Assembly (NCBI GenBank): GCA_026025075.1
Contig: JAPEUI010000033.1
Location: forward strand, 1-64,000
Reading direction: 5' to 3'
Source of the DNA: Vezdaea acicularis
Lineage: Eukaryota
DNA length: 64,000 nucleotides
Of this stretch, positions 27,544-64,000 are shown piece after piece. A model generated the notes under the pieces. That model was given only the letters and a program-made list of their open reading frames with translations, was not told the DNA's origin and made no database searches. The position numbers and the translations under genes are program-made. Every line of letters starts with the position of its first letter. The stretch's first letter is position 1.

Positions 27544-30024
27544 TTACTTCTCGGCCCCCTCGAGCAGCTTTGTCGCTGCCTTCACCTGGCCCTCTATGAT
27601 TCGGGCCCATTTCTGTAGCACAGTCAGCATCACCATTCACCATAGTTGAGTACCAAGTCAGCTTACCGCGCCGTTATCCCAGTCTTTTGCATCGATGCTC
27701 TCGACAATACCAGGAAAGACCGCTCCCGAATATCCCGTCCAAAGGCCTGGTGCGAATATCGTATGTTTGAACAGTGGCCTATTATCCAGACCGCCTTCGT
27801 AAAGGAATGCCCGTTCGAAATATTTGTAGGCACCATTCGTCTTCCGTACTTTGATCATGAGCGCCACCTTTTTCCACCACTGCCACCATGGAATATCTTC
27901 TTTCAGCTTCTCAGCAAGTTCCGCAGCGCTTACATCAAAGCTTTTCGCAACAGGTCCGAAGTCTTGAATAGCACTGGCCAGGTCGTTGAGCGCCGCGGCG
28001 AATGAAGTCCAGTCAGCCTTCCCAAAGCCGTCCTTCTCCGCCGAGACGTCTTCAAGCTTTTTCTCAATACTCTCAAAATATCTGTGAAGGCCTTTTGAAT
28101 AGTCGGTAACATTAAGTGGTATGATAGGGGTCTCGATCAGCTTTGCCGCCATCAAAGCCCAGATTTTCGCTATTGCGACATGGTACTCCCAGGTGGGATC
28201 GCCAAACTTGTCCATCCAATACTCGCTGTCGTAGTTGGAGTGATAGTGATAAACTGGAGAGTCATACCCAGGGCGGAAGCCCATATCAACACATGGGATT
28301 CCTGCAAAGTCCTGGAACGCGGTGAAATCGCTGCCGCTGCCCATAGTCCTGATCTTACCATCCCACGTGTCTTTGATCGAATGGCCTCTCGTCTTATTTG
28401 GCGATGACACAAGCGAGGTAGTCTCATAGATGAGCTCGTTCAACAGAGGCGAGGCTGATGCATCATAATAGGGGCCAACAGCGCCAACGTCTACGTTCAG
28501 ATAGGCCACAGCAGTCGCCTGGAGCCATGGGAAGAACTCTTCAACCCATTCTGTGCTCCCGATCAGAGAGTATTCTTCCCCATCCCAGCTGGCAAAGATG
28601 ACTGTCCTTAGCGGCTTCCAACCTTGCGCTACGGCTTTTCCGAAGCTACGAACGACCTCATTTAGTGCCGCGGAGCCACTGTTGGGATCACCAGCGCCTC
28701 CAGCAATCCAAGCATCACGATGGTTGCCTATAACAATCACCTCATCTTGAACGGTGCCATTGATGATGCCTATCACGTTCCATAGGGGTGTAGTAACATA
28801 TTCTTGCTCATTGACTAGGTTTAGTTTGATGTCGTCTGGGGATGGACCAATGTTGTAATGAACTCCTTTGTAGCCGAGCCCACCGCCTTTCCAGTACTTG
28901 CTAAGCGAAGACGCATTCGGGCCATGACCATTCAAGGCTTTGAGCAGTGGGAGAGCATCTAGATAGGAGATTGGGAGGGATGGAATGCTGGGGATGCTTC
29001 CATTTGTGGGAGCACGAGGCACCCCTGGTTTCGAGGGGTAGCCAGGCGTTGTAGGATCCCCCGGGGCTATATCTTACGCATAAGAATCAGTATGGTTGCA
29101 ATTTAAAATCCAGGAAAGGGACTTACTGAGGTAATCTACGCTTCCCCGCTGTACGCTGCTGGGGTTTCTCGCTGGTCCAGCCGGGTAGGTCTTATACCCA
29201 TTGGCTTCTGTCATGTTTCCATCATCGCCAGGGTCACTATATATGACCACTCCTACCATTCCGAGTTCTTGTGCGCGTTTCACCTTGAGCCCCCTAAAGT
29301 TGCCACCGTATCTAGTAAGAGCGATCTTGCCCTCGAGCACGACACCGGCCTTTAGCAGTTCCTCGTAATCCCAATACGTGCCGTAATTACAGTAGACGTA
29401 ACCAGCCGTGACATTGCCGTTAGCGGAATATCCGTGAAACGTTGGGATTCGGTCGTCAAGGCCACTGGTAGGATCCTTGTTGAGAACGTCTTCCGTAAGG
29501 CTGGCCTCGAATTTGACCTTCCATCCTTTCTCCACTTCCGTATCCGCATCACGTTTGCTTTTGCCCGACTTCTCTAACAGTGCCAAACGGTGACCAATGG
29601 GGTAATTGAGGAAAACATCATAGCTGACCAGTGTACTATCTTCAATCCCGAACTCTTGCCATCTCTCCTGTGTCCATATAGCCTGGGAAAGGTTCTTGCC
29701 GGCAAGATGTGGGCCAGCCGTGTAGTAATCACTCCATTCTTTCGTCTTCTTGGCGTCTGGAGTCTTTAGTAGTATTTTCTGAAGGTCCTTGTATTCGATG
29801 CCCGAACTTTGAGGCCAATTCTGATGCGGATAAGGCGATTTCCATGGTAGGTAGGCAGATAGGTTTCCGAATCCAGCTGGGAAACAGAAAAGGATCACGA
29901 TAACAATGAAGGTCGTTGTGAGTGAGACTGTACAGAAACGACGGAGAGTATCGTGTGGATAGCGTCGCCGTTGTGGCGCGATGCGGACCGTAGTGATCAA
30001 CGGTGTTCGTTCGTCGTAGGACAT
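27544..30024 (-). CDS. M28 glutamate carboxypeptidase II-like protein (PA and TfR-dimer domains), Vps70/Tre family
   Basis: N-terminal TM anchor; HLAG, FRGLKV, SVQRGSV, GNHRDAW, AGDPNSG, SWDGEEY, GSGSDF and YHYHSNYDS. Two introns. Confidence 0.95.
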
Positions 30025-35158: not shown

Positions 35159-36594
35159 CGTCGGCCGCGTCGAGTTGCCCGCGGTCTGGCGCGAGGGCAG
35201 GGCTGAACCCTGGCCGAGGGTCGAGTGCGCCTTGGGGAACTGCCTCGCGGGGACCGGGTACCTGCTCGCTCGGAACAAAGCGAGAGACAAACGACCCAGG
35301 ACGTCAGGGTGAGTCTAAATCTAATTTCGGCGTCACCTCCTTTCTCGCTCCCTTTTTCTTTTCGGCGCGCGCTCGCTGCCACGATAAGGCTGACGGCAGA
35401 CGAAGTCGATCGTGGGATGACGCAGAGTCGTTCCTCAAGCTGCCCGAGTGAGGTGCTTGGCCCGATGCAAGACGCACCGCACTATTGGCAGGGACTGACT
35501 CCTCCCTTTCGCGTCCGAGTCACGAACCCCGCGACCTCACCGTCTGTTCGACGAGCCAGGCTGCAGTCCCCCCCCCTTATCGCTGCTTCATCAGCCTTAC
35601 GGGCCGGTCGTACGGATGGTGGAGGCCGCTACGATGACGGAAGACGAATGACGCACGCGCGATGCTGGCCCACGATGCGGTTGAGGGTGTCCGGGCGGGG
35701 ACGATGGAGGTTGACGGATGGAGGAGGGAGCTGGTGGAGGGCGATTCGGAGGGCAACACAGCCGACGGAGGGGGGAAAGGGCGTTGCAGCCAGCTCGAGG
35801 CCATCGCCAGTCGCTGCCCGTCCCCGTCCTGTGAGCAGCGGCCGTGGCTTGATCCGGCCGCACAGGTCGGTCGGTTGCAGACTTGGCGCAAGCGACAAAG
35901 CTTGGCGCGAGGATCACAGCCCTCGCCCTAACCCTATTGCACTGCGCGCGCCCCCTGCCAGGCCAGCCAGAAGCGCAGCCGATGGAAGAAGCCGACGTGC
36001 TGATTGGGCTGATGCTGCCGGCTGCACGTCGTAGGGCGACTAGCAGCGTTGTGTATATGAGAAAGGCCGGTGAAGAACCTGGAAACAGAAGGAGGACGCT
36101 CTCTCGATTAGAGCTTGCCCGCCGCCGTGATCGCATCATCAATTATCTATTAGAACCGTCCAGGCACGCCCCTCGCTGCGGTCGCTGTCGTGCGCTGGTC
36201 GCGATCCTCTTCATACCGTCCTTCGCTCATTGTCCGTCCGTCCGTCCATCCATTCCATCTCCCCTCTTACCGACCCGACCGCCGGCCTCGTAGGGCGCAC
36301 GGAACCGAGTCTCAGCTCGCTCAGCTCCGCACGTGATCGCCCCATTGCGCTGGGCTTGGCCGACGTCAGAACCGAAACAGGAACCGACGACGAAGGAGAG
36401 CGACCGAAGGAGACGCGAGAAGGAGCACGAGAGACGCTGGATTGCGGCGAGGCTTCTGCCCCCCCCTCCCGCCGGCACTCGCTTGGCGACGGTTGTCCTA
36501 CCGTCGATCGGCACGTGACTGAGGGTCTCAAGCAGGGCGCCTCCAACCAATCACGGCACATCGCTACGCCACCAATCATAACCCCTCCCCGGCG

Positions 36595-39500
36595 ATGGAT
36601 TACTCGCCCGACTACTTTTCCTTGCCATCTCGAACGGAGTCCTCTTCAGCGCCGCCGCCAAGGACCACCGACAACTCCCATTTTGGCCTGCAACCCCAGG
36701 GTCAGGCCGAACTCCAGCTCGATCCCGTCGTCTGGCAGCATCCCCAATACGCCAATTACCTGACCCCGCAGTCCGCGCACCTTCCCATACATACCGGGCA
36801 TTATAGGAGACGGTCACCTGCTTCGGCCTCTCCAACGTCGGGTTTTACCGTACCTACGGCAAGTTCCATCGCGACAGAGAGATCCAGAATGGGGCCGAAA
36901 CGCTCGTCTTCTGGAGTCTCACCTGGCGACGCTCCGCCGAGTTCAAAGGTGAAGATCAATCAACCCACGTCGGCGGATGCGGGCCATGGGAAGCCGCGGG
37001 CAAAGGGCCACCCGGGCCGTACGGGACAGGCGTGCGACCGATGCAAGGTGAGCAATTCCTGAATTCAAATCAAGAGGACGCGAGAAGGGTTGAGGGGATA
37101 TCGTCACTTTTCGATCGAGCGGTACATGGCCAGCACGATGCACCACGCGTCGTCCCCGAACGAAGCGCTAACTTTACAACCCTAGAATCGCAAGATAAAG
37201 TGTGATGATGAGACACAAGCCTGCAATAATTGCCGCGTGGCAGAAGCGGAATGTCTGGTGACAGACCGCAACACCGGGAAGGCCCTACCACGGGGTTATC
37301 TGGAGAGGTTGGAGCTGCAAAACGTGGCCTACCACCGACATATCGAGGAACTCACCGAACAACTGCGACAAGTGGGGATCACACCGCGGCCTGCTCCAGC
37401 TCTTGCCGGTCATGGTTCGGGCCCGATCGCGGCGGGCAGCACCACCGTCCAGGGGCTCGCATGGAACTCGTCGCAAGGCTTCCATGGGGAGGGGATGAAT
37501 ACGGATCCGATGGCACAAGCGATCATGGCCAGTATCGCGACTTCCACCTCTCCATCCGGTCCGCTCGACCGAAGCCTTTACAAAGAGCCGCCGACGTTCA
37601 GGACGGGATGCCATGGGGACAACTACCTCGGCGTTTCTTCCGACAAGCACGTCAGCAACATCTACGGCACGACTCTTCAGCTGCTTGGAATGAAGATCGA
37701 CATTGCCGACTTCCCCTCGAGCGAGATGGATCAGAGTGGTTTACACAACAAATCATACGAGAGCTTACTCAGTTCGATGTTCAACGTCAATAAGAGGATC
37801 ACTCGAGTCGACCTGCCTCCCCGCACGGAAGGCATGCAAGGCGCAGAGATATATTTTGTCTCGACCAACTCATTCCTGCCGCTGCTCCACAAACCCACGT
37901 TCATGACGCTGGTATGTACCTGATCTTGCAAACGTCTTCAGACTGCCTGCTGATATGATTCGGTAGCTTTCTCGATTCTATGATGATCCGACCTTCAAAC
38001 CATCGGCTGCAGAGAGCGTCATGGTGCATATGGTGTTCGCCATCTTCTACTTTCAGTCAGCCGCTCGGAACGATGATACAGAGAAACCGGCCAAGACCCA
38101 AAGGTCGAACCTGCACTACCACTATTCTCTCGGCTTCTTCCACGATCTGATGCTGGGCCACTCTCTGCAAGACATCCAGGCGTTGGGCCTGATCTGCGGT
38201 CACCTACGAAATTTCCCGAAGCCCGGCGCCAGCTGGATGATCACCAAGATATCGCTAACGCTCGCGAGTGAGCTGGGACTCCACCGGTCGGCGCAGCGTT
38301 GGACCAGCCCTCTGGCCCAGGAGAACCCGCTAGAGTTGGAGATGAGGAAGCGAGTCTTCTATTCCATCTTCTCTCTCCACATCCTGCTCAGCGGAAAGCT
38401 GGGTCGACCCATGGCCATGCGACTGGACGATTTTGACATTGAATTTCCGGGTGCCATTGACGACTCGCAGATCTCGGAAAGTGGCATTGATATGTCACGG
38501 CCGGCCAAGTGTTCCTTTGAAGTCGGACTCGCAGCAGCAAAATGGCAGATACTGTCTTTGGAGCTATACACAACCCTGTACACAGTGAAACGGAACCTCA
38601 ACGACCTTCCAGCAAAGCGTCAGGCCCTTGAAGCTAAGCTCGAGAGATGGTACGAAGAACTCTCGCCCGAGATGAAAATCAATCCGTCTCAGAGCGTGCA
38701 AATGGATGGGCAAGGCATGGTCTTTGCGCTCTGGCTCCAGATGTTGTACCTCGAGTTCAGGATGCTCCTTTACCATCCCTCCATCGATATCAATGACAGT
38801 GCCAAGTCCTATCGAAGTAGTCTAGAGATTTGCCAGCAGACTGCAAACCAAATGAGATGGTCGCTCGGGCAGCTGATGCAGCTGAGGAGTCTGGACACGA
38901 CATGGTATAATGCATCCGTCGATGTAATGGCCATCACCGTCACATTGTTTGCCTATTATGAGAGGAAGGACGAGCTCTCCTATAGCGACGTCGAAGACCT
39001 AAGTAACCAAATGGACCAGTGGCTTGTGATCATAAGTGCCGTCGGAGGACTTCTGGGTGAGTACTACGTGGCTACAGCCCTGACAAGATTGAATATGTGA
39101 GGACTGACCGTTAGCAGGATCTGGAAACCGTCTGAATGAAGCAGTGAGCGTTGTCTCGGCTCGTACCATCGCCGCAATCAAGAACCATCTCGACATGAGA
39201 GCCGCCAATCTGGGGACTGGTAGGCGACACTCAAGCCACTCCCCGGCCGGCAGCCACCGATACATCTCCCCTGAGACTGCCATGGGCGATGCAACAGAGC
39301 CGTACCAGCCGAACCAGCAATATGCATACCCCGACCCTAACTCGATATCCAGCACGGTCCCCTACAGCGGCCAGAACCAGATGTACAACCAAAACCCCTA
39401 CAACAACGAAGGCAACCTCAACGTGCGATCGCTCGCCCACGTCGCCGCCGCCGCCACCGAAGCCGCGCGGGACCAACCCGAGCAGAAAGTCGCCTTTGGA

Positions 39501-42084: not shown

Positions 42085-45000
42085 ATGCGGCGACATCATA
42101 GAGGTGGTGGGGGACCGACGGCTCATGCCACCAGGGCGAACGGCACACCTGTCCCCGACACATTGTCTCTCATCCGGACGTTCGATTCAGAGACGAACCC
42201 ATCCAAACCCATACGACCATCACCTCTGACGGCTTCGCCGATCCAAGGGATGCCGCTGGACCTGCTTGATCGTATACGTTCTTTCCCCCTCTTCCTCAGC
42301 GCGCCGGATTCGTTCCTGGTCGCCATCGGTTCGCAGCTTCGCCCGCAGCTGCACCTGCCGCACGACTACATCATTACGGAAGGCGATGAGGCAAAGGCGA
42401 TGTATTGGTTGGTCAGAGGGTCTGTGGCGGTGACGTCTAGGGACGGCGAGTCGACATATGTGGAGTTGAAGCCTGGCGCTTTCTTTGGGGAGATTGGTAT
42501 TCTGATGGGGATACCCCGAACGGCGACCATCGTTGCGCGGAGTAGGGTTCTTCTCTTTGTGCTCAAGAAGGAGGACCTTCAGAAGGAACTACCCAAATTC
42601 CCAGAGGTCGAGCGGACGATTCGAGAAGAGGCCCAAGAACGACTCACGATTCTGAACAAGAAGAAAAAGGAAAGTGGATATGCAAAGACGGTCGGGACAT
42701 CGCAGCTTCCTACGAGAGGAGGGAAGAGATCGCGAGAGACCAACGGCGATGTTGCAATGCCAGAGAATATCCCGGAGGGCGAAGTCAGCGCGTTCAAGAA
42801 GCGGAAATCACCTAGTCCGCGTCTCACAGAGAGCCAGCCGTCGTCTAGCGCGTTGGCAAACGGCATGGTGAATGTGCGCCAGACTCTTCGAGAGCTTCCA
42901 CTCTTCTCTTCTCTACCAGCAAACATCCTCCATTTCCTAGGTCTCTCCGCTCAACCGCGTTCATATCCTCCTTTCACGAACATCATCACGCAAGGGTCTC
43001 AGGGCAGGGAAGTCTTCTTCATCATTCGTGGCGAAGTAGAGGTCGTAGACGAAAGGCCTGGCTCCTACGATAAAAGCGGAAAGGGGCGGACCAACGGCAT
43101 CTCCACGCCGCCAACGTCACGTATCAAGGCGCGCTTAAAACCAGGGCAATATTTTGGGGAGGTGGCGTCCTTGTCGCTGGCCCCTCGGCGGACAGCAACG
43201 GTGCGATCCGTCCAATCAGTCGAGTGTCTGATGATTACTGGTGAGGTACTGAATGAGTTTTGGAGGCGCTGTCCACCATCCATTCGAGAACAAGTCGAAC
43301 AAACGGCAAAGACACGTTTAGAGCCGTCGATACAGGATGTAGACATGTCGGATGCCCCGGGGGTAACACCTACCGCCCTTTCGAAGCTCGAGATTGCAGA
43401 CCGCGGTTCGCGATCGCCCCGAAAGAATGGTGACACCGTGCCTACGGTTACCTTCTCGCAACAACCGTCTTCTCCAAGAAAGGAGCAGAGGTCTCCAGTC
43501 ATCGGCCCCTCCGACCCCGACCCGTTCCTCAACGTCGACCTTGACAGCCTCCGCGCGCGCTCCCGCAGGGGTTCCCTCGCCCCTCCTCCCCCAGACGGCT
43601 CAGAACAATCCGCCTCCTCTTCCTCCCCCTCAAAGCGCCAGACACGCTCCTCCACCACATCCCCCACAAAAGCCAAGCCCAAACACGTCAGCACACCCCC
43701 CGACTCGCATACAACCCCCAAACGCCTACGCACCACCCTCCAACGGCGCCCCTCCCAGTTCAGCAAAGGCCTCCTTCCCGACCCCATTCTCCTCCGCATC
43801 TTCCAAAACCTCGACATCTACCAACTGATACGACTTCGGATTGTCTCTCTGCACTGGCGACACCTGTTATGCACCTCTCCTCTCCTCCTCCAAACCCTCG
43901 ATCTGACCCCCTACAACCGCCACATCACCGACGCCGTCCTCCTCGGCACCATCCTCCCCTTTCTCGGCACCCGCAAGCCTTCCGTCGTCGACATTTCAAA
44001 CTGCTTCCACCTCACGGACCCCTCCTTCTCCGCGCTCGCCGCCGCCTGCGCCCCCACGACGAAAGTATGGCGCATGAAATCGGTCTGGGACGTCTCCGCG
44101 CCCGCCGTGCTCGAGATGGCGAACCGCGCCCGCGGCCTCGAGGAGGTCGACCTCAGCAACTGCCGCAAGGTCAGCGACAATCTGCTCGCGCGCGTCGTCG
44201 GCTGGGTCGTGCAGGACCCACTCACCGGCTCCGCGCACGCCAGGAGCAGTAGCAACAGCAGTAGCAACAGTGGTGGTTCCAGCAACGCGCAGCAGCAGTA
44301 CAACACACGCTCCCACAGCGCCAAGACCAGCTCCTCCTCGTCCTCTTCCAATCTATCCCCCACCACCTCCTCCGCCCCCGTGAACCCGCACCTCCCCGTC
44401 CCTGGCACTGTCATCGGCTGCCCCGCCCTCAAGACGCTGACGCTGAGCTACTGCAAGCACGTCACCGACCGCTCGATGGCGCACCTCGCCGTGCACGCCT
44501 GCGCCCGCCTCGAGAGCGTCGATCTCACCCGCTGCACCACCATCACCGACCAGGGTTTCCAGCATTGGGGCATGTACAACTTTGCGCGCCTGCGCCGGCT
44601 GGTTCTGGCGGACTGCACCTACCTCACCGATAACGCCGTCGTGTATCTCTGTAATGCCGCCAAGGGGCTTCGCGTGCTTGATCTGGTATGTTATCTCCCC
44701 CCCTCTCCCTTTCTCTCTTCTCCCCCGGGAGGGAGTCCCTCCTTTTTTTTCTGGGTCTCGGGAACACCCCACTAACCTCCCTTCGCCACCTCCAGTCCTT
44801 CTGCTGCGCCCTCTCCGACACCTCGACCGAAGTCCTCTCCCTCGGCCTCCCGCACCTCACCTCCCTCAACCTCGCCTTCTGCGGCTCCGCCGTCTCCGAC
44901 TCCTCCCTCCGCAGCATCGGCCTGCACCTCCTCGACCTCTCCTTCCTCTCCGTCCGCGGCTGCGTCCGCGTCACCGGCGTCGGCGTCGATGCCGTGCTCG

Positions 45001-46341: not shown

Positions 46342-47871
46342 ATGCTTTCTTCGAAGCTACTGCTGCTTCTAGCAATTGCTTTGACCTCGGCCTCCGCGCA
46401 GCCGATTGATGCGTTCTGCGAGGTGATCTATGTCCTCCCTGATGGTGGACAATTGGGCGATAATCCGGTTCCTACATCATCTGACCTTACTGCCGCTGCG
46501 GCAGCTGCTACCCCGTCTGGCACTTCTGCGGCAGAAAGCTCTCCGACTGATGGTGGACAGTACGGCGATACCCCGACTGCTGCGTCGTCTGACGTTGCAG
46601 CCGCTGCGGTAGCTGCCACTTCGTCGAGCACTTCTGCAGCGGGTAGCGCTCCAACTGATGCCGTTGTGCCTGGAAATGGCACCAGCAGTATAACTTCCGC
46701 GGCTACTCCCAGTGCCGGTGCTGGCGTCGTTTCCCCTGTGCTCACGAATGGTACACTTCTACAAGCACCTCAACCTACAAACCCTGTGCCTAGCAATGCA
46801 GCAATCTACGTGTCTCCGTACGGCTCTCAATTCAACTTGACGGACTTCCATGTTTGGATTACTGAGCAACGAAAGAACAACCAACCCTCAAAGTGGCTAA
46901 AGGTTACGCCAGGCGAGTACACTTATCTTGTCGTTGACCCAGGCGATAATGGCCACACAAACATCGCTTTCGGATTCTATACCGGCGGCTGGACGCTCGA
47001 CTTACGTGGATGTACCTTTACCTACTCTCTAGCTTACGACAACTATCAAGCCATATACATCAACCAGTCCGAAGATCTTACCATTCTTGGCGGCACCTTT
47101 TGGATCGATCCTGGTGAGATATGGTCGCAAGCACGTGTCATCTCTATGGAGCCCGTCTCGCCTGGTGCCGACGACCAGAACGTTGTTCTCCAGGTTGAGC
47201 AAGGCTACAATGTCAGTATCTGGGAGACCGCCAGTGCCCGGAATCTGTGGGCTATCGACGATAGTAATCCAAACCACTACACAAGGCCTGCTTGCAACTT
47301 CTGGTATATGCATTTCCCAATTACTGTCAGCCCCGATGGAACTATCAAAGCCGTGATGGGTTTGGATAGAGGCCATCTGAAGGTGGGCTACGTCCTCTCT
47401 ATACAGTTGATCAACAACGTCGGCACTACCGTCGCCTCCGAATACAATGGCGGCCTCACTATCGATGGCATGACTACGAACGGGTAAGTTCCTGCGCAAC
47501 TCTAATTGTATGAGCGTATTTCTATGGGTGCCTAACACATCTGCTCAATTGTAGGGCCTTTGCTCAGTACGGTCTTGGTGGCACAGGCAAGACTACCGCA
47601 ACCTGGAAGAACCTGCTTATCACCAACATGGCCCCTCGCGCTGGGTTCGCGCCACGCGTCAATGGTCCGACACTCAGCTGGGGTAACGTCAACTCCATGA
47701 ACTTCAACGCTGATGGCGATCCACCCGTCAATATGATAAACTCCTTTTGGCAGGTAATTGACTCAACGCATCACGTTGAAATGGAGGATTGCTGACACTT
47801 AGCAGTACACTGGCTGTACCAAGGACCTTAGAGATTTCAACGACCCACAGCTTCCCCCAGGCGGGACGTAG
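46342..47871 (+). CDS. Secreted protein with Ser/Thr/Ala-rich linker and probable beta-helix-like domain; paralogue of 6815-8175
   Basis: Signal peptide MLSSKLLLLLAIALTSASA. Introns 47484-47554 and 47754-47805 restore collinearity with the paralogue. Confidence 0.87.
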
Positions 47872-49157
47872 GCTTACCAACCTAACTGGCGAACAAATGC
47901 CGATGTGGACGTGGACGTTTGATCCTTGCGACCGATCGAAGGATGATTGCCATATATAGGCCTTCCATATACCTAGAGCGTGTGTGCATATCTCTTCAAT
48001 GTGCCCTGGGGGCCGCCATGTATTTCTTTTGGACAAAGATACATATGATCTGAGCTTTTAGCCCGAGCGGCATTCTTCTAGACCATAAATTTCGAAATGT
48101 TCACATTGAATCTCTGAACATGTGCATTTTTCATGACCAGGATGAGTTAACAAGATGTGATGGACCCCACAGTCAGAAAGTTCTGGTAGATGGTAAGCGC
48201 CCTGCGCGTATGTTTGCCCCTGTCGCCAGATGTGGCAAAGCAAGGTGGCTCGTGAATTTAAGTTTAAATTGACTTTAGCGGGGATTTGCGATTTTCCCTC
48301 ACTCCTCTTGAAGTTTGCCCACGCATAGACCTAAGCTGGCTTTGTTATGATTCTCCGGCTTTCCCGGCTGACAGATGCATCCAATGCTTCTACCGCGATC
48401 GCCTGCGTCCGCGTCAATGGATGTGGGATAAAGGCATGCGGGCAGCTACAGTAGCACGAGCATTAGGTGCGCCGCCACGAAAAGCGCCGTCTACAGTTCG
48501 CAGATGGGCAAGTTTGGCGATAAAACTCACAGATGAAAGCATCATTGGTGCAGGACACAAAAGTGCGGCGGTCTCAGCTGAACAAAAAGGGTTCTTGTCT
48601 TCAGGGGAGGGTGTTGATGTTGGCTGTCGCGCTCGCCCCCGTTGTTAGCGATCTTTCTTCCTGACCAATCACGGCGCTCCCCGTTCTCCTGCGTGCATTC
48701 TCGCCGACTCGAGCGGGCTTCCGTACCTGCCTTTCGCGTGCGCCAACCCCGTAGAGCCGACCACCACTTCGAGCTGATCCCTAAAATCTTCTCTGGACTT
48801 GTGCGCGCCTCGAGCCAACCCCTCTTGAATATCGTGACATTCTTGGTCGCACCCTCCTTCACTTCATACAATAGAATCCTTTACCTTATCGATGTTGTGT
48901 GCCCTCACTTTCCTCAAACAGTCTCTGCCCGGTTTTTGCGAAGCTGCTGGTCTGTTGTGTAGATAGCTGAACCTTCAAACAAGCGTTCGACGTTTCACCC
49001 GACAAGGAGACGTTGCCGCATGTCAGCCACATCGCAAAGCACCGCCATCGCCCTCTTGATCACTCCCTTCTTTGTCGCCGACATCCAACACGCACGGGCC
49101 TGAGGTAGCTTTAGCTTCCGCTCATCGCTGAGGCTTTGAGTAGAACAGGTCTACATT

Positions 49158-52051
49158 ATGAATGGTCGAGCTGGTCCACTGTCACCAATCTCTCCCGAGG
49201 GAAGCGAATGGTCGGGCATCTCGAGGTATCAATCCATTGACAATACCTCGCCATACTCGCCGGCAGTGCCACCAAACCGCGGCCTGGCAACGCCACCTAT
49301 CTCGAGTGGTTCAACAAACGGGACAATGAACGGAGGCATGCCCAACGGAGTGGGCCGAAGTCCTAATGATAGTCCTGGAAACCCCTCACCTCCAAGCTCC
49401 ATCGCCCGATCTAGTATGGGGGTGGGAATGTACCCTCCGAGTGAGAGCGGGAGCCGTAAAGGGAATCTCATGCTCGAGGAGCTACTGCTAGAACACTATA
49501 TTGCGCTCAAGAGGTATCTCGCAAAGTCACTGAGGGAAGAGCAAAACAATCCACGCCCTAATCGAGCGCGAGACAAGCTATTAAGGCTTTCGACAGTCCA
49601 ATTTCAAGAGCTGAGTACGGATGTGTTTGATGAGCTGCTGAGAAGGCAAGCGGGGCAGCGGAGCCAAGGCGCACAGTCTCCAGGTCCACCACCTTACCTA
49701 CTACCTAAGGATAACTTCCATCCAAAACGAAACCAAGCGCGCCAGAAGCTTTCCACTCTTCCCCCACCCCGATTCAGAGACTTGGCAACAGATGTATACT
49801 ATGAACTAGAGAGGAGATATCCGAGATTTATGGGCAACGACATTGAAAGGATGGGAAGTCCTGCTGGTTCTGTTCGTTCAATGGCATTTGGAGGCCCACC
49901 TGGACCGCGGCCAGGATCACGTGGCATGGGTGGACCTCGAGGGCCCGGAGGACCTGGGTTTCAGCACCCTCCGCGACAAGGGAGTCTTGCCATTCCAGGA
50001 GGTAGTCCTGGGAACGAATATGGAAGGCCGCTTCCGAAGACCTTTCAACAGAATACCATCGTTCCGAATAAGAGCACGATGGTAGAAGATGACGACGATC
50101 AAACTGGCCCTGATGATGATGACGACGGTGACGCCTTTGGATTAGAAGGGGCTGCAAGACAACGACAGAGTAAGCGGAATACAACTCGCACTGATGGCGA
50201 AGCAGAGGTGAGGCACTTGATCTGCCTATATCCGCCCTGACAGAGCTATTACTAATACAATCTTGTGACAGAGAGACAAAAAGATGATCGCTGAACTTCA
50301 GGAGAAGCTCGACGACCTTACAGTTCAAGTGCGGCAGAAAGACCAGAAGTTAGGTGACATGGATGGTATAAAAGCAGATAAGCAGGCATGGTCGAACCTG
50401 AGGGAGGACCTAGAAGGGAAGCTAGCAGAAGCACAACACCTGAACGATTCGTTACAATCAGAGCTAGATAAAGTCCGAGCAAACTATTCAAATATGGAGA
50501 GGGATATGCGCAACCAAGTGGAGCAGGCCCGAAGACAAGGAGGCGGTGGAAGCGAATGGCAGGGTCGATACCAGAACCTACAACAAGAACATGAGGCGCT
50601 CAAAGTTGAGCTAAGCGAACAACAGCATGTAACGGAAGAGGTGAAGAGGGAAGCCTCAGAGTTCTTGAGAGAGATGAAGACAATTTCCGACAGAAGTGAT
50701 CACATATCTCAGAAAGAAGAAGAAATGGTCGGCCAGGTTCACCGTCTTGAGAACGAGGTCAAAGAGTGGAAAGGGCGATATACTCGCGCAAAAACTCAAC
50801 TTCGTCATCTCCGCGCATCATCGATTGGTCTCTCTCTGGAAGGGCAAGGTGCTGGCCATCTTACTAGGAATAATAGCTTCACACGACCTGATGGACTCGT
50901 CAGGGATGTGCACGTCACAAGATTCCAGATCGCCATCGACGAGCTACTCCGGGCTGCACGAAGTAATGAGCCCGCAGCGGCTCTTGACCATATCAAGTCT
51001 GTCGTGGTCAGTGTCAGACAGATCACCCAAGACCTTGGAGATGGAACCACAGAGAATGGTGATGAAGCCCACAGACGGAACAAGATGAAAACTCGCGTTT
51101 CTGCCACTGCAAACAATCTTATTACAGCAGCAAAGAATTTCTCAATCTCACGAGGGCTTTCTCCTATATCGCTTCTAGATGCTGCAGCATCACATCTTAC
51201 TGCGGCCGTCGTTGATCTAATCCGAGTCGTCAAGATCCGGCCTACACCCGAAGATGAACTAGATGATGATGAGAACGAACCGATTCCTTCCAATGAAGGG
51301 CAAATGTACTTTCCAGTTCGCAAAGGCGTTGCAAGTCAAATAAGTCAGGGATCCGTCTATAGCTCCTTGAGCTCGCAGCGAGCTTCTTATGGCCGACCAG
51401 GTAGTAAAGAGCGGTGGAGCACACGCCAATCGGTGTCTCGAGGGGGTCCAAATGGAAAATCTGCACCTACAAACCTGAAAATGGGCTTCGGACCGAGAGA
51501 GCATGATAATGAGATTGAGGAACTCAAGGTAAGAACTTACTCTCTGAACGAACTTCCTGTTAGAACGAAACTCTGACATCCTGCAGATCTACCTCGAAGA
51601 CCAAACTGAGCATCTCGTTCACTCGATCCAAGCACTCGTCGGATCTATCCGGGGCGCTGACGGAATGCCAACTATCCGCGCCCACATCGACGACATCGCC
51701 TCCGTGGTCGGCAAAGTCGTCACATCAACTGAAACCGCCATCAATAACACTGGCAGTTCCTCGCTACGCGATCGAGGCGAGCCGATCACTAGGAAGTTAG
51801 CAGAGTGCCAAGTGAAGCTTATGAATGCCAGTGCCGAAGGAGAGAATATCAGGGATGCGGCAACGATGAAGGATTTCTCGAATAGGCTTCCGCCCCTCGC
51901 GTTCGAGATTGCGAGAGAAACAAAGGTATGCTGAGGCGTGAGAGAGTTGATGTCTGAGCTGGCTTACTGACTCCCTCGATAGGAACTCGTGCAGCGAGTG
52001 GACCAGATCGAGCATTCCGGCCTTGAGGAAGAGAGCGAAAGCTTCCGATAA
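49158..52051 (+). CDS. SPA2: Polarisome scaffold Spa2
   Basis: Two SHD/GIT repeats (ARDKLLRLSTVQFQELSTDVFDELLRR; ARQKLSTLPPPRFRDLATDVYYELERR), a coiled coil, GLSPISLLDAAASHL and LAFEIARETKELV. Three introns. Confidence 0.95.
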
Positions 52052-52912
52052 CCTCGGAAGGAATACAAACGAGTAGCACGAATGAATATCTTACATAATT
52101 CCATAATATAACACTCACGAACACGCACACTTTATACACATCTGGCGACTGGCTCGTCCACCCCTCCTCCACCAAGAACAACGCCCTGCATATACACCAA
52201 TGAAGGAACGATGATGCATCCTTCCCCACCCTTTTCCGGCAACGCAGTACTGTACCGAGCAAGCACACACACACAGCAACGAAGTCAAGAGACAACCTCT
52301 ATCACACGTCTAGCATTTTCTTGGGCAACGCATGCATGCATGGCACAGAGTTTTGAGCGTCTTCTGGTGATCGGGAGAGCGATCGGGAGAGGAATTCTTT
52401 AGCGTCTGCGACCCAACTGGCTCCGATCGCTTTTGCTCGATAGGAGCCCTTTCCTCTTATAGGGTAATATTTGTATCATAGGAATTGAAGTACGGCGATG
52501 ACTTGAGTGATTAGTGGATTGCCTTTGACTATGTGTGAGCTCAGCGTGAAGGGATGCGTATCGTGATACCTTTGCGTGATAGACCCGTCTCGCCCGTACG
52601 AGCATGAACCCAGAGCAGCCGATTATAAGCCTATCACCGCTCCATCTACGACAGATTCAAGACGCTACATACTCCAACTGCATCTGAACTCCCCCCAAGA
52701 CCTTCACCCGCACAGCGCACAAATCCCACCTCTATCCTCGCAACCCTCACCGTTTGCACGGCTCGTAAATAGCCTATGCGAGCCCCATCCAGACTACTCT
52801 GAAAATTCCCCGGGTGGTCATTTCACCAAAGTGAGTTTATACTTTGTATTATGTTGAGAAATGGCAATAAGAAGCCCTTGGTGGTCTAGTTGGTTATGGC
52901 CCTCGGCTGTAA

Positions 52913-52955
52913 TGTGCTCCCTTGCCCCCAGTCTCACTGGGGTGTCTGGATTGGA
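52913..52955 (+). other. Canonical tRNA intron at position 37/38, 43 nt
   Basis: Starts one base 3' of the GTA anticodon; contains the hairpin CCCCAGT-CTC-ACTGGGG. Confidence 0.9.
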
Positions 52956-52970
52956 ACCGAGTGGTCGGCG

Positions 52971-53024
52971 GTGAGTTCTTCTTCGGGTAACTGAAGATGA
53001 TATAGCTTACTGACGATGTTCAAG
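52971..53024 (+). other. Spliceosomal-type intron (54 nt) inside the tRNA T stem, position 52/53
   Basis: 5' GTGAGT, branch site TACTGAC at 53008-53014, 3' AAG. Exact removal restores GGCGG-TTCGATT-CCGCC. Confidence 0.85.
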
Positions 53025-53060
53025 GTTCGATTCCGCCCCAAGGGAATAAGACAACTTTAA

Positions 53061-53097
53061 TTTTTGGTTTTTTGTGTTTGTTTTTTTGTGGGTTTTT
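53061..53097 (+). terminator. RNA polymerase III oligo-T terminators for the tRNA
   Basis: T5 at 53061-53065, followed by further runs of 5-7 T; the first starts 16 nt after the discriminator base. Confidence 0.75.
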
Positions 53098-53403
53098 GTA
53101 GAAGGATATTATTTTTAAGGGTTGGGTGGAGGTGGTGGGGATGATGTGTGCTGTGGCACGGTGTGTGAGAGTCGTGGGAAGAGGCAAGAGAGTAAGAGGA
53201 TTCAGGCTTTAGGGAGCATCGCAAGGCACGACAGAGGCGAGATGAGTGTTACGATAAATTCATGGGTCTCTCTCCAAGCCTTCAGATTTATACAATCGAC
53301 ATGATAGAATGAGTGGAGTCTCCTAAGTCTTGCAGGAAAGCCTAGAGCACAAACAAATCCATCAGAAGAACCCCTAATCTACTCCACCCCCCGATTATCA
53401 GGC

Positions 53404-54426
53404 CTACCGCCTGTTGTTCTGCCTCATCCCTAAAAGCTGTACCATTCTGATAAAGATGTTCAGGAAGTCGAGCTCAAGACTGATGCTCTCATTGACGACA
53501 TCCTTCTTCATGGCCCCCCTCTCGGCCAACCGAGCGTGATACAGCACTTTCTGCACGTCATACAGTGTGAAGCCGCCAAATACAGCTAAGCCGCCATATA
53601 GCCAAATGTTCTCGGTCCACATCAGCGTCCTTGCGGCTGTCGCGGGGATGACCAGCGGCGCTAAGCCCGACAGCGCCACGACTGCTACGCCCGCTAGCAG
53701 TGGGCCGCCTAGGTATAGATACTTCTCCTGCTTGGCTGTCGCGCCCACGAAGGCGATCGAGCCCATGACGCCCACGGTGTACAACCCCGCCTTCGCAAGC
53801 AGCGCCGGACTGTAGAAGAATAGAGGCGAGAGAATGGCCGCTTGAGTGAGGTTGAAGGCGGTCCAGAGTCCATATTTTTGCACGTAGTTGTCCGGGTCCG
53901 TCATCTGAGTGCCAATCATCGTTCCGATGCTGCTTGCAAGTCCCAAGCCGATTACTAGCCATGGGCTGGTGGCCATCAGCCGGTAGGACCAGCCGCTGCG
54001 GTGGAGGGCTGTTGCCGCGATCCCGATTATTCCGACGCCCAGCCCAGTGTGCAGAAAGGTGTCGTTCAGGTATGCGCGCTCGAAAGGGGGCATGCCGCCA
54101 TCCTCGCGCGTTTCGCGGTTGAAGACGAGGTTGATGGCCACGAGCGTGCCGCCGAAGATACCTGCGCCGTAGAGTAGCCTGGTCGTAAGGTTGCCGCCAG
54201 CGGCGACGGGGTTGGGGACTTGATATGGTTGCTGAGTAAAAGCTCGGCGGAAGGTTTGCGCGAAAATAGAGGTTTTGGTGAGGGCAGGGACGGCTTTCTT
54301 AAGGGGTTGTTGGATGGGGGTGCTGTGGTGGAAGGCCCGTAGAGGGGCGGCGATGCTAGAGGGTTTGGGCATCGTGCGGGCGAGTGCGGAGGGAAGCGCC
54401 ATCGGGCGCTTCAAGATGAACGCCAT
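53404..54426 (-). CDS. Mitochondrial Bax inhibitor-1 family membrane protein (GHITM/MICS1-like)
   Basis: Arg-rich presequence; hydrophobic helices; YLYLGGPL, LYGGLAVFGGFTLYDVQK and SLELDFLNIFIR. Confidence 0.92.
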   Translation of the reverse strand: MAFILKRPMALPSALARTMPKPSSIAAPLRAFHHSTPIQQPLKKAVPALTKTSIFAQTFRRAFTQQPYQVPNPVAAGGNLTTRLLYGAGIFGGTLVAINLVFNRETREDGGMPPFERAYLNDTFLHTGLGVGIIGIAATALHRSGWSYRLMATSPWLVIGLGLASSIGTMIGTQMTDPDNYVQKYGLWTAFNLTQAAILSPLFFYSPALLAKAGLYTVGVMGSIAFVGATAKQEKYLYLGGPLLAGVAVVALSGLAPLVIPATAARTLMWTENIWLYGGLAVFGGFTLYDVQKVLYHARLAERGAMKKDVVNESISLELDFLNIFIRMVQLLGMRQNNRR

Positions 54427-55056
54427 GTTTGAGAGCCCTTCTGAGGAAGAAAAAGTTGGTGAGAGGATGAGGGTGATGGTGATGCTAGGTAAGGTAAAAG
54501 AAGTGACGTTCGAGAAAGTTCGCCGTCCGGACCATTCGCCGCTCGGTAAAGTCTTGGCGTTCAGAGAACATTAAGGCAACGCTCATGATTCCTCTCTAGA
54601 TTATCATTATCCCTACTAACTTCTGCAGCCTTGACGTCTTCTTATTGGTGTAAGACATACTCTTTACCCTACGAGGCCTGATTTGAATTTCAACCTCAGC
54701 GATGACGCCAGTGTGGCATACAAGTGTCTCTAGCGTTGAATAACCCTAGATATGCATAGCTAAAGGCTTTATCATGGCTCTCGTTCAAGGAGACAGGATG
54801 TCCGACATCCATATGTTGCATGACATTTCACCACCGGAAATCAGCCCTGGTTATGCAGTACATGGTGTGCCGTCCGGCGAAGAGCGACTTCAATATCAGA
54901 CCTCTGATGGACAAAATCAATCCCCGCGGGAACTGCCAAGAACGCCCCAAGGCTATCTTCCAAGATTTTACTTGCATTCAATCCGAATATGTCGAGAATT
55001 ATATACAGTTCTTGATCTACATTTCTTACTCTTATCAATATATACTAACATCACCC

Positions 55057-56809
55057 TTACACCGCCATTTCACTCTTTCCACCGTCAGTTGTCAGTCGCT
55101 TCCTCACTTTGATCTTCAAATGGTTGGCGCCCAGTCTTTCTATTACTGGCAGTCCCTCAGGTCCCTTCTCTATACCTACAGTTGCACTTGGAGAAAATAG
55201 TAACGCCTCGCCAACCCTCAGATTGACGATGTTACTGAAGATGTGCCGGGTATCACTTCCTTTATTATCTTCGCTGGACGACTTATCCCCTATTTCCTTC
55301 AACTGTGGCTTTCGATGGGTCAAATCCGACGCCCCAGCTGCCAAATGCTCCTTTAAGGTACGGAACCATACTGGGGAAGTGAATCTGTGCACGATCGTGG
55401 CCGAGGAGAGATCCAGCAAGGCTGGCGATATTGTAGGCTCTTGTGTAGAGATAATAATTCGAGCGCCAAGATGCCGTTGGAGGCGTATGGTCGAGAGTAA
55501 TGTATTTGTGAGAGTATCAGCCTCTGCTGATGCATTCATATACTTTAAACATCACATCATGTTAGCATTATTTAATGTCTTGATGGATACGCACTTCCTT
55601 TACTTACCTTGTGCGCCTCATCTAGGGCAACGACTCGGCCAGTGCCATTCTTCTGCTCCAAGAAGATACTCAAACATATGTTAAACAAAGAACAAGCGCC
55701 CTCTGGAGTGACACAGGGGCACGAAAGGTCTACAATAGTGAGGCAACCAGCCTAAATATGTCAATTTTAAACCAGCTGAACGTAGAAGGAGATATACGCA
55801 CCTCGTTTCTCCATTGATTTCCCCTGTTCACTACTATTCTATTCTTTTTCTTGCCAAAGACCTGCATCTCGGCTCTGGGCATAAAGCTCTCAAGAGTATC
55901 CAGCCGCTGCGTTAACGGTCCAAGCTGGCCAGGTGACATAGGGGCATCCTTGACCTGTTGCTTGAACTTGGCATAACAGAATCCTGTCCCCGTCTCTTGC
56001 TCTACCATGCGCATGTCGCGCAAGATGCGGTATACGGTATGTAAGTATAAGGGTACAGGTCCCTCACTGTGGCTTACTGCCATCAGATCTAACATGCGTT
56101 TAGTGTTCAGTTCCCTTTCACTGATCGTCAAAGGTTGAACTTCAATGCCTAGAGCATGGTAAGTCCGCTGTTGAACGACGATAGTTAGCCCCTTCACTTT
56201 TAGGGTTATACCGACGGATGACACTTAGGCTTGACTTGCCTGCATTGTTCGCAAATTTGTGGGGGCGCATAAGACCCGGACTTTGATATTGGGGTTCGAC
56301 GCCAAGAAAGCGGCTTCGCAAGGTGATCCGCCTTCGTCTGAAATGAAGGCGTCGAAATGGAAGACAATGCCTGATAGAGGCTTTGGCAGTTTGTTGGCCT
56401 CCGAGGGAAACAAGCAATTCTCTAACAGGCAAGACAGTGTGTGACTCTTACCAGAGCCTTGTGAGCCACAAATAAACGTGCTCGACGGGGCAGCAACGTT
56501 GAAGAATATACGGGGATCTCTATCCACCGTATCAGTCGCACTATCTTCATTACCTATGGTGGCACACAATGCATCAGCCACCCCGCCCAATAGACCATAT
56601 TGAGGGAAGGGCTCTTCGTCTTCCTCAGAAATAGCTTCTGTATGTTTGAGTACGGGCATTGTAAAAATCGGCGCTGTTGTCACCTCTCCGAGCCCTTCTT
56701 GCTCAGATCCTATCTCTAAGAGGCTCAGATGATGCTTCAGATGTTCAAGCCTCTCCACGTCTTCACTTCCTGAGCTCTGGGAAGGAGTCGTGGGACCGGA
56801 AGTAACCAT
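55057..56809 (-). CDS. P-loop ATPase of the HerA/FtsK/VirB4-like superfamily
   Basis: Walker A ICGSQGSGKS, Walker B RVVALDEAHK, RLQRHLG and ISTQEP. Four exons; the first intron is GC-AG (56168-56239). Confidence 0.85.
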
Positions 56810-58438: not shown

Positions 58439-60546
58439 CTAGTCATGGGCATCAAAAAACTCATCGACTTCCTGGGTACTAGTATCCTCCCGCACGAGCG
58501 GCTGGCGCGTGGCTTTAGGAGACGAGGTGGGGAGGATGGGCTGTTGCAGTCCCGCGGGGGGAACATTGCCTTCGTGGATATTATTCGATGCTTTGGCCGT
58601 TGGGGCGGCGGGTACTGCGCTGGTGCCATCGGCGCCGAAATCAATTAGGCTGCCCGTCTGGTGAGTGGGATCTGGTGGCGGTGGTTGCTGTTGTTGTGGC
58701 TGTTGTTCGGAGGCCTTGGGTTCTTCCTTAACGGTTGGTGGCTGGGGGTGCTCGTGTCCTTCGACGTGGGCGGGGATTTGGTATTTGGATAGTGGGGGGT
58801 CGCCTGGGAGGATGGGTGCGATGGAGAGGACTTGCTTTGATATCTCTTCTGGGGTTGATCCGTTACTTCGAACATCAGCTCCTGCATTAAACAGAGCAAA
58901 AATGCTCAGGCGACTTACATGTTTGCATTCAGGATCCAGTCCAAATCCTCCTCGCCTTCGTCTTGACCCCCTGGGCCCCCCTGAACGCGCCGGAATAGGC
59001 GCGGCCTCCACTCAACTCCGTCTTCAGCTCTTTTCGAAGCTTCTTGCCGTTGCATGTCTTCTATTTTCGTCTTCTCGTCCGTCGCCACGTCATGATTCCG
59101 TTCCTTCAAGGCGGCGATGACTGTTGACCATAACTTTACGGACTCGCGCTCTTCTTGCTCCTGTATTGGTCTCACCAAAGGCATCGTAGGCTTCGCGTGT
59201 GTGGCATCGAACAGGAGGTCCTTGTGGCCCGTCTGGAATTTTCGTAAGCGTAAAGGCTACTATCCAATTTGCGCGCGCTGAAATGCTTCTGAGTAGACAA
59301 ATTCATATTAAGGCAGGCTTACCATCTGATCCTTGATGAACATTTCGCCGTTCCACATACCCGATAGCTCGAACAGTGCTTCTTGAGTTGACTCCCTCTT
59401 GATAAAGCCCCCGATTGCGTTGTATGTCCCACCGACCCAACCTTTGGTCTTGAACTCAATATCAGCCACGAGGTCGTTCTCTGGACACCGGACATAGCTG
59501 TGGTCGCCGAGCTCGTACTTCATCTTGCCGAACAAGATTCCACGGGCGTACATGTTAGGCTGCGTAAGGATACTGACTTGCAATCAGTAATCTAGAAAGG
59601 TGGGTTTAGACGCCCTTGCTACAAGACTTACTATCTCTCCCCACGTTTCGACTTCGTGGTCCGGTTCGTGAAGCTAAGTATGGCAATACCTTCCATCAAA
59701 CTGGCGGCCGAATTCCCCAGAAACTTGCTCCTTGGCTTCAAAGTCCCATCGACTCGGATATGATGCTCCGGAGCTATATAGAAATAACTCGACTTGGGAG
59801 GATGGTGTGAGGTTTGCTCGGAGATGTAATAGCCCCTGGTGTGGTCCGGGTATTCCCAGTAACAAGTATAGTATTCGCCAAGGATCGGATTTAGTGGTTT
59901 TTTAACCCCACTACATGCTCGTCAATGGTCTGTTGTTGATGCAGGGCCTGAGTAATATCTTACGGAGGTTTAATATGCCATCCACTTAGGTAAAACTTAA
60001 CAACTGAAATGAATCTTTGAACGGGATCTTCAATTTCGGGCATGGGCAGTAAAGTCTCCGGATGCGCCATGAAGCTGCCCAAACAATTAGTCTTTTTTTC
60101 TTCCAAATTGAATAAAAGCTTTTGCAATATAGGGAACGGACTTCGTGATTCTCTCAAGCATCGACCTAGGCTCTAAGATAAACGTCGGCAGCGTCACCCT
60201 GCTCAGGTCCGCACCGGGCCTGAGCTGGGATATAATATGAGACAGAACTGTCATAGGCACCTTAATCAGTTTCTCTCCCCTCCACCATACCTCACCTCAG
60301 GGCGCATACCATTGCCCTGATCAGGCTCAACGATCGTCTCATCATCGCCATGGGAGGAGTCGGGCCGTTGCTCATCCACGGATGATCTATTGCCTACGGG
60401 GAAGAATTGATGATTAGCCTTCTTGAAAGGCGGAGCCCAGGAGCTCATGAAGGGAGCTCCGGACATTTTTCTGAATAGAACATAAAGAAATGGGCGGACC
60501 TACTGCCTAGCGACAGGCGTCGATGCGAGTGAGGCAATCCCACCAT
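58439..60546 (-). CDS. Oxysterol-binding protein, Osh6/Osh7-like
   Basis: [48 protein letters not shown] and [11 protein letters not shown]. Many short introns. Exon 1 inferred as [14 protein letters not shown]. Confidence 0.93.
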
Positions 60547-62934: not shown

Positions 62935-64000
62935 TTTCGGTGAAGAGAGACGGATCGTTTGAAAGTTCGGAGCTTATTGGAAAGGAAGTGAAAAGTGTCT
63001 CGACCAGCGAGAAGAAAGAAAGTTCCAAAGATTTCTAAGGGTGAGTTGAAATATGAATCCGAAGGACTCTAACACAGCGTGTTGCAAAATGTCGGGTATA
63101 GTTTTCGTCGTATTAAACCTGTAGACGTGATAAAGAAAGAAGGAAAGGCAGTGAAGCTGATTTATATGGGTCATCAAGACCTGCCACGACCAGCGTGTGT
63201 GAATAGAGGGCTGGTAAATGCGTAGACGAAAGCCATCGCCACGAGACTTTGGGGAGGTTGAGATGAAAATGGGGTGGGAAGGCTTGGGCGACATTCTTAA
63301 AGAATGTGCTCGATGCCAGCCCGACAATAGAGCAAAGGGCTTGCGACGCGCGGAAAACGAACGCTCCACACAACGGCAAAAGCGCGACGCCTGGATCAAT
63401 AGAACTTGATCCAGCCATTACTACGAACGACAATGAAACAGAGGGCCCCTCCGCGAAACCTGTTGAAGTGAAATGGCCATTCTTGGTTGCTCGAACTTTG
63501 GGCTATTGACGGGCAAGGTTTTTTGCGAGAGGGTTGAAATAGTGGAAATCCATGACGAAGCGCTCGGAGCCAATCATCTCGGACGCTCCACACATCCCAA
63601 ACACGCAACGCTACCCAGATTCCGTAACAAGCGCCCAGTTCTCCCCCCAAACGAACTTTTTCGGCGCCTCGCAGCCACTCCCGAACCCTTGCCCATTCTT
63701 CGCGACAGCCTCTGAAACGTGTCTGGGCGGAACAAGAAATCTCGGAGGGGGAGAAATAAAAGTACGTGGGACGAACTGTGGCGCGCGCGCTCGCTGGTTT
63801 TTCCGGAATGCTACCACCAGTCTGGTATGCTCAAGCCTCACGGCGAGGCGCGCGTGGAATCCCAAATATAGTGCATACTGAACCACTGTAATATCCGTAA
63901 GCCTCCATACCTAAAATCGCCGCTTGCCATTACTACACGCCAGCCCTTATGACATTCCGCAGGGCTACCTGATTCCCCAAAAGCGTAAGGTCTACATGAG

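Follow-up and report, generated by a model that had tools for sequence, protein, structure and literature searches.

A candidate ascomycete tRNA-Tyr(GUA) gene with a putative canonical intron and a spliceosomal-type intron in its T stem

Background

Could a transfer RNA (tRNA) gene need the spliceosome as well as the tRNA endonuclease to make its product? The question is raised by a locus of Vezdaea acicularis on a stretch of 64,000 nucleotides (nt), positions 1 to 64,000 of the forward strand of contig JAPEUI010000033.1 (assembly GCA_026025075.1), which we refer to as the window. A tRNA-Tyr(GTA) gene of 171 nt lies at 52875-53045 on its plus strand, in three exon pieces parted by two inserts that are apparently of different kinds. 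One insert is 43 nt long and lies at the canonical tRNA intron position, 37/38. The other is 54 nt long, splits the T stem and is, by all the sequence criteria tested, a spliceosomal-type (U2-type GT-AG) intron. A preliminary description of the locus had reported the cloverleaf and the T-stem insert; the 43-nt insert at 52913-52955, which lies inside the 171-nt span claimed there, was absent from it. This overlooked intron bears on the mechanism: with it, two splicing machineries would be needed, one after the other.

The papers cited here were available to us as excerpts, and what is said of each holds for the excerpted text. Reviews of 2023-2026 treat spliceosomal and tRNA introns, in those excerpts, as unrelated classes with separate machineries. 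A full-text literature search, with most subscription journals and supplements outside its scope, brought up no tRNA gene reported to have a spliceosomal intron. The sole phrase match, in a Mesodinium preprint, was rejected, since the passage retrieved reads 'non-spliceosomal tRNA introns'.

We regard the locus as a candidate nuclear tRNA-Tyr(GUA) gene of an ascomycete that carries both an endonuclease-type and a spliceosomal-type intron, an assignment to which its sequence gives only slightly less than an even chance. That the gene would be functional and matured by two machineries is judged likewise, at a little under even. The fullest form of this proposal is that the gene works and that its product would be the first known tRNA to depend on the spliceosome, with the T-stem intron removed first and Sen and Trl1 then acting on the anticodon-loop intron; this we hold tentatively, as a possibility somewhat more doubtful than probable.

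Results and discussion

Structure and identity of the tRNA-Tyr gene

Both inserts were sliced out by coordinates (37/38 and 52/53), and ARAGORN, run without intron options, folded the remainder into a 74-nt Tyr(gta) cloverleaf. This call agrees with the earlier claim of a tRNA-Tyr(GTA) cloverleaf with C1-G72 and A73, the eukaryotic Tyr identity elements. The acceptor stem (CCCTTGG/CCAAGGG, with A73), the anticodon stem (CTCGG/CCGAG) and the T stem (GGCGG/CCGCC) were read directly from the sequence and pair as had been described. Throughout the spliced product the stems are fully paired, with the exception of position 13-22, and the invariant bases are present at 11 of 11 positions (T8, A14, G18, G19, T33, G53, T54, T55, C56, A58 and C61). 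Position 1-72 is C-G and position 73 is A, while G15 and C48 are able to pair. Positions 34-36 read GTA and A37 and A38 are present, so that the anticodon loop is C-T-G-T-A-A-A.

Boundaries and splice signals of the T-stem insert

The T stem (GGCG/G...CCGCC) is interrupted after GGCG by the insert at 52971-53024. In-silico slicing at these ends restores GGCGG-TTCGATT-CCGCC, exactly as the preliminary description had proposed for GT-AG excision, and the signals that it had listed (GTGAGT, a TACTGAC whose branch A lies 11 nt before the insert's end, and AAG) are all found at the same coordinates (Table 1). The junction is ambiguous by one base and can be written as GGCG/GT..AG/G or as GGCGG/TG..GG/T; the GT-AG rule is obeyed by the first of these alone. 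No coding frame accompanies the insert, its flanks holding 19 and 24 open codons.

The ends of the insert are fixed independently by restoration of the T stem, and they coincide with GTGAGT...TACTGAC (11 nt)...AAG. The frequency of such signals was estimated on both strands of the window with a strict signal set, requiring a start of GTRAGT, an end in AG, and a CTRAY motif whose A lies 6-30 nt from the end. At a length of 54 nt this set is present in 2 of 127,892 segments (~1.6e-5), one of which is the insert itself; over lengths of 40-100 nt it is present in 29 of 7,795,800 segments, a rate of 3.7e-6. Both counts overstate chance, because real introns are counted in them.

These fixed-boundary rates (3.7e-6 to 1.6e-5) leave little room for the view that the insert is junk that resembles an intron by chance, or a mis-join of the assembly. 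In favour of such a view, the insert is known from a single locus with no independent copy, but the flanks rebuild a flawless tRNA, and mis-assembly would not place a GT, a branch site and an AG at ends that are defined by structure. The surrounding 6 kb is also represented in sequencing data: six DNA sequencing runs from three studies contain between 7 and 66% of the words sampled from 49000-55000. Runs with a divergence of roughly 1-8% are among the matches, but no RNA run is. We consider chance or artefact to be exceedingly improbable.

Another possibility is that the GT...AG ends are incidental and that the insert is a non-canonical tRNA intron, cut by the tRNA endonuclease through a fold resembling the bulge-helix-bulge (BHB) motif. 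The fungal Sen enzyme is not known to cut outside 37/38, which weighs against this idea. The excerpted text of PMC4090602 is consistent with that restriction, and it also describes archaeal introns at 53/54 and T-arm introns of nucleomorphs and red algae, several to a gene, which lend the idea some precedent. The insert does allow a relaxed motif, in which 3 of the 4 central pairs form and the flanking helices are 2 bp long. However, two of its three pairs are G-U, no 4-bp version exists at either of the equivalent boundaries, and the relaxed score is reached by 935 of 20,000 random 54-nt segments (4.7%). The known nucleomorph ectopic introns are only 3-24 nt long (PMC4090602), and the coincidence of full spliceosomal signals with the exact boundaries (p~1e-5) would be left unexplained. 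An endonuclease-cut T-stem intron therefore appears highly unlikely.

Table 1. Parts and signals of the tRNA-Tyr gene, and other features of the window
Feature	Position	Strand	Remarks
Introns joining two frames of >=70 codons each (n=7)	29073-29126, 35309-35399, 39057-39114, 44160-44225, 47484-47554, 58866-58918, 59573-59631		
GIT/Spa2-like gene	exon ORFs 49140-51934	+	tRNA ~900 nt downstream, same strand
tRNA-Tyr exon 1	52875-52912	+	tRNA positions 1-37; acceptor 5' strand CCCTTGG, D arm, anticodon stem 5' strand CTCGG, loop CTGTAA
A-box-like TGGTCTAGTTGG	52882-52893	+	tRNA positions 8-19; by inspection
37/38 intron (putative)	52913-52955	+	43 nt, tRNA-type; from ARAGORN and pairing geometry
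tRNA-Tyr exon 2	52956-52970	+	tRNA positions 38-52; A38, CCGAG, variable loop TGGTC, T-stem GGCG
T-stem spliceosomal-type insert	52971-53024	+	54 nt, at tRNA positions 52/53
5' splice site GTGAGT	52971-52976	+	follows an exon G
Branch motif TACTGAC	53008-53014	+	branch A 53013, 11 nt from insert end
Acceptor AAG	53022-53024	+	first AG past branch A
B-box-like GGTTCGATTCC	53024-53034	+	by inspection; spans intron/exon-3 junction
tRNA-Tyr exon 3	53025-53045	+	tRNA positions 53-73; G53, T loop TTCGATT, CCGCC, CCAAGGG, A73
3' trailer holding several oligo-T runs (like a Pol III terminator)	53046-53110	+	first T5 run starts 16 nt past A73
Bax1-I/GHITM-like gene	53404-54426	-	nearest protein clusters mostly Ascomycota

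Open reading frame (ORF) coordinates are given for the exons of the GIT/Spa2-like gene. Pol III, RNA polymerase III.

Comparison with the messenger RNA introns of the window

Apart from the insert, the strict signal set identifies 13 other donors in the window. Seven of these belong to introns that connect two frames of 70 codons or more each (Table 1); they are 53-91 nt long, with 6-19 nt between branch and end. For another three the joined frames reach at least 30 codons, the shorter one having 30-48. The AAG acceptor is used by 3 of the 10 local introns supported by frames, and one of the three (29073-29126) is also 54 nt long. The T-stem insert, at 54 nt with its branch 11 nt from the end and an AAG acceptor, falls within these values, in keeping with the earlier statement that its size and signals match those of the messenger RNA introns in the window. 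A longer list of 238 candidate junctions, constrained by frame, was too noisy to serve as a baseline and was set aside in favour of the strict-signal census.

The intron at 29073-29126, on the minus strand, joins open frames of 302 and 470 codons; beyond the splice signals it has no sequence in common with the T-stem insert. Three segments carry strict signals without frames of at least 30 codons on both sides (26440-26487, 56041-56133 and 63041-63101, all on the plus strand), and they may be introns of untranslated regions, parts of non-coding transcripts or chance occurrences. Closer to the tRNA-Tyr gene, the introns at 50208-50271 and 51529-51586 join exon ORFs of the GIT/Spa2-like gene, which have Pfam matches to GIT_SHD, VBS_C3G9 and GIT1_C.

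The intron at position 37/38

The 43-nt intron looks like a proper substrate of the tRNA endonuclease, judging from its predicted pairing geometry. A pair can form between C32 (52907) and the intron's G at -3 (52953), which places the 3' site in a 3-nt bulge beside the 5-bp anticodon stem; the same pairing score is reached by 318 of 20,000 random 43-nt segments. The segment 52913-52955 also contains a flawless hairpin of 7 bp (CCCCAGT/ACTGGGG) whose loop is 3 nt long. In a survey based on GtRNAdb, an intron is carried by >90% of the functional tY(GUA) genes (PMC12168002). On its reverse strand the same segment gives a match to the Rfam family MIR5286, of 15.1 bits against a gathering score of 93, which is surely due to chance.

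Recognition of the locus by tRNA finders

Neither of the programs that we ran recognizes the gene as it stands. With default settings ARAGORN reports 0 tRNA genes in the entire 64-kb window, and Rfam at the gathering threshold gives 0 matches in the window. When the Rfam threshold was relaxed to an expectation value (E) <=10, a 361-base slice over the locus produced no tRNA match. Four weak matches to other families (Qrr, MIR5286, tmRNA end and RNase P end; E 0.36-4.6) were dismissed as chance, all being far under their gathering scores. Once introns in the anticodon loop are allowed, the locus becomes the only tRNA that ARAGORN finds in the window, in the form of a 94-nt 'Asn' tRNA that is mis-folded, has its T stem broken and contains an intron of 77 nt. 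The prediction that standard finders would miss the gene holds, then, for ARAGORN, by which it is missed or mis-folded, and for Rfam, by which it is not matched.

Removal of 52971-53024 alone had been expected to yield a Tyr-GTA call. In ARAGORN this deletion does produce a clean 74-nt cloverleaf with a 43-nt intron, but the label is His(GTG), because the program sets the anticodon intron at 36/37; Tyr(GTA) is obtained when the 37/38 intron is cut as well. We have accepted neither of the other labels. 'Asn' needs the 77-nt intron and the broken T stem, and 'His' depends on an intron at 36/37, whereas a cut at 37/38 gives Tyr(GTA).

Transcription signals and genomic context

Transcription of the locus by Pol III looks feasible from its sequence features. 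The segments TGGTCTAGTTGG and GGTTCGATTCC are A-box-like and B-box-like by inspection against the consensus sequences of these elements, and presumably represent them. Since the intron's final G takes the place of G52, the genomic DNA has an unbroken B box. From T8 to G53 the distance in genomic DNA is 143 nt. No T run within the 171-nt gene is longer than 2, and the downstream oligo-T runs that had been claimed are present 3' of the gene.

The tRNA-Tyr gene sits in a spacer of ~1.4 kb between two convergent protein genes, one GIT/Spa2-like and the other Bax1-I/GHITM-like (Table 1). Both neighbours fit, and support, an ascomycete nuclear context. A G/T-rich tract with a strong GC skew of ~+0.35 to +0.41 follows the tRNA terminator region (53110-53200), ahead of the Bax1-I gene, whose 3' end faces it. 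A second GTGAGT is found 44 nt upstream of the tRNA; the segment that it begins, 52831-52874, ends in AAG and abuts C1. This segment is without a CTRAY branch motif, lies outside the set of strict-signal segments and is AT-rich. Upstream regions of active tRNA genes are often AT-rich.

Splicing is generally coupled to transcription by RNA polymerase II (Pol II), which counts in favour of a different route to the same product: a Pol II read-through or non-coding transcript of the spacer could be spliced co-transcriptionally, and RNase P and RNase Z could then free the tRNA from it. The GIT/Spa2-like gene, ~900 nt upstream on the same strand, might supply such a transcript, and the upstream GTGAGT would be in keeping with this route. 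Against this route stand the full Pol III outfit of the locus (A box, B box and oligo-T runs), with T runs of <=2 in the inserts, as a Pol III unit requires, and the failure of the upstream GTGAGT segment to show CTRAY or to appear among the strict-signal segments. We consider maturation from a Pol II transcript to be very unlikely.

Proposed maturation and origin

If the gene is functional, its maturation can be sketched as a series of steps. Pol III would transcribe the 171-nt unit, and in the nucleus the spliceosome would release the 54-nt intron as a lariat whose branch point is A53013. Removal of the 54 nt would let the T arm and the tRNA elbow form. End processing and export would follow, after which the Sen endonuclease and the Trl1 ligase would remove the 43-nt intron. 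The order would be forced, because the tRNA endonuclease measures from the folded mature domain, which is unable to form while the T stem is split. The excerpts of PMC4090602 are consistent with measurement of this kind.

The T-stem intron would most likely have arisen by reverse splicing into a G/GT site of a tRNA-Tyr transcript, with subsequent reverse transcription and recombination, as has been proposed for the U6 introns of fungi. Such a G/GT insertion site fits a reverse-splicing target, as described by the proto-splice-site rule for these targets. An origin from an introner or a transposon is not indicated: elsewhere in the 64-kb window the insert does not recur over more than 15 nt, and no target-site duplication extends past the 1-2-nt overlap (G / GT), the longest word common to the junction zones being GTTC, which lies off the boundaries.

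Reverse splicing or an introner could equally have delivered this intron into one member of a multi-copy tRNA-Tyr family without the result being usefully spliced, in which case the locus would be a recently disabled copy, a young pseudogene. We take this explanation seriously, as the main rival to a working gene, although we think it on the whole somewhat improbable. Several observations lend it weight, and count against a working gene. In eukaryotes, tRNA genes with insertions in the D or T arm are pseudogenes by the default of the field, and such insertions are usually found in one of many synonymous copies (PMC4090602); redundancy of uninterrupted tRNA-Tyr copies could let a dead copy persist, and in a spacer between convergent genes it would cost nothing. 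Restoration of the T stem does not discriminate between the two explanations, because a reverse-spliced intron or an introner restores the stem in a dead gene too. Similarly, the intact B box follows automatically from a G/G insertion site and an intron that ends in G, so that it is not independent evidence of selection; both properties are expected from the insertion mechanism alone.

Other points concern the splicing reaction itself. A Pol III precursor that is tightly folded, bound by La and uncapped, with a 3' exon of only 21 nt, may be a poor substrate for the spliceosome. The predicted fold of the insert (-15.5 kcal/mol, z -2.59, with 2 of 200 shuffles equally stable) pairs the 5' splice site with the bases directly 5' of the branch motif and so sequesters it, which speaks against efficient use of the site; in principle, self-folding of the insert could help or hinder splicing. 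Nor was an orthologue found in a scan of metagenomes with a pattern that was anchored in the exons and left GT, branch and AG free, where the pattern matched at 2 loci, both by chance. Those two matches (L001 1024-1115 and L002 2001-2092) are near-identical to each other, lie in coding-looking DNA and are unrelated to tRNA. A 19-nt query from the D arm gave 0 matches in prokaryotic genome contigs, as expected for prokaryotes.

What sets the locus apart from a typical disabled copy is the condition of everything around the insert. There are zero other defects: the 11 invariant bases, the stems, the identity elements, the geometry at 37/38, the A and B boxes, the terminator and the splice signals are all in order. 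With the remainder of the gene flawless, loss of function would require that the insertion be very recent. The lack of a second copy in 64 kb and of a target-site duplication beyond 1-2 nt means that no active introner family is indicated as its source, and fungi are known to splice transcripts of Pol III (PMC5855946).

Significance

Should the locus prove to be a working gene, a tRNA gene that needs both machineries would break the partition between spliceosomal and tRNA introns. The list of non-coding RNAs with spliceosomal introns (U6, U1, U2, U5, U3 and ribosomal RNA) would be extended to the most abundant product of Pol III. A working gene would also bear on the origin of introns, by pointing to reverse splicing into abundant nuclear RNAs that are outside the spliceosome. 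Even a dead copy would give an uncommon view of an intron just gained outside the protein-coding genes.

Such genes may be commoner in fungi than has been thought, since they are possibly under-counted: tRNA finders and surveys based on GtRNAdb are blind to them. Gene counts and intron surveys that rely on programs of the tRNAscan-SE type cannot see a gene of this kind, and some of the 'missing' isoacceptor copies of fungi could be hidden in this way.

Comparison with known systems

The nearest parallel is the U6 small nuclear RNA (snRNA) of fungi. In Schizosaccharomyces pombe, U6 is transcribed by Pol III and the spliceosome excises its intron (Tani & Ohshima 1989, via PMC5855946). U6 introns occur in many fungi (Canzler et al. 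2016, via PMC5855946), with up to four in a gene, and are thought to derive from reverse splicing. Like U6, the tRNA-Tyr gene encodes a short, structured non-coding RNA made by Pol III, and the U6 promoter shares the internal logic of tRNA promoters (PMC5855946). In both cases the intron is short, with canonical splice sites at its 5' and 3' ends and a canonical branch site; U6 introns are otherwise unconserved (PMC5855946). Intron and B box are entangled in both as well: the title of a 1990 paper states that the U6 introns of Schizosaccharomyces contain a match to the B box, and in the tRNA-Tyr gene the last G of the intron completes it. The two systems differ in that a tRNA is not part of the spliceosome, so that the rationale of 'proximity to the catalytic centre', offered for reverse splicing into U6, is inapplicable here. 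The tRNA-Tyr gene, unlike U6, also has an endonuclease-type intron, and the removal of its spliceosomal-type intron, established for U6 in S. pombe, is a prediction.

Spliceosomal introns have been reported more widely in fungal non-coding RNAs, namely in the U6, U1, U2 and U5 snRNAs, the U3 small nucleolar RNA and the nuclear ribosomal RNA of some ascomycetes (PMC5855946, PMC5832005). The T-stem insert shares with them the GT-AG ends and the fungal branch site, and most of those introns are, in the excerpts, supported only computationally. Its distance of 11 nt from branch to acceptor compares with a mean of 15 nt for the introns of fungal U3. In its host the insert stands apart, as no tRNA is named in the excerpts of the published lists and most of the hosts there, U6 excepted, are transcripts of Pol II or RNA polymerase I.

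A second intron in the T arm beside a canonical one is also a feature of the ectopic tRNA introns of archaea, of Cyanidioschyzon merolae and of cryptophyte and chlorarachniophyte nucleomorphs (PMC4090602, PMC3728597). Genes with ectopic introns are, according to the excerpts, overlooked by standard finders, as is the tRNA-Tyr locus. Ectopic introns are defined by the BHB motif and cut by the tRNA endonuclease; in contrast, the tRNA-Tyr insert has a weak BHB, full spliceosomal signals and a fungal host. The locus can finally be set beside tRNA pseudogenes with insertions in the D or T arm (PMC4090602), which it resembles in having a T-arm insertion, probably in one of several synonymous genes. 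It differs from these pseudogenes in that its insertion is precisely bounded by splice signals and the remainder of the gene is flawless.

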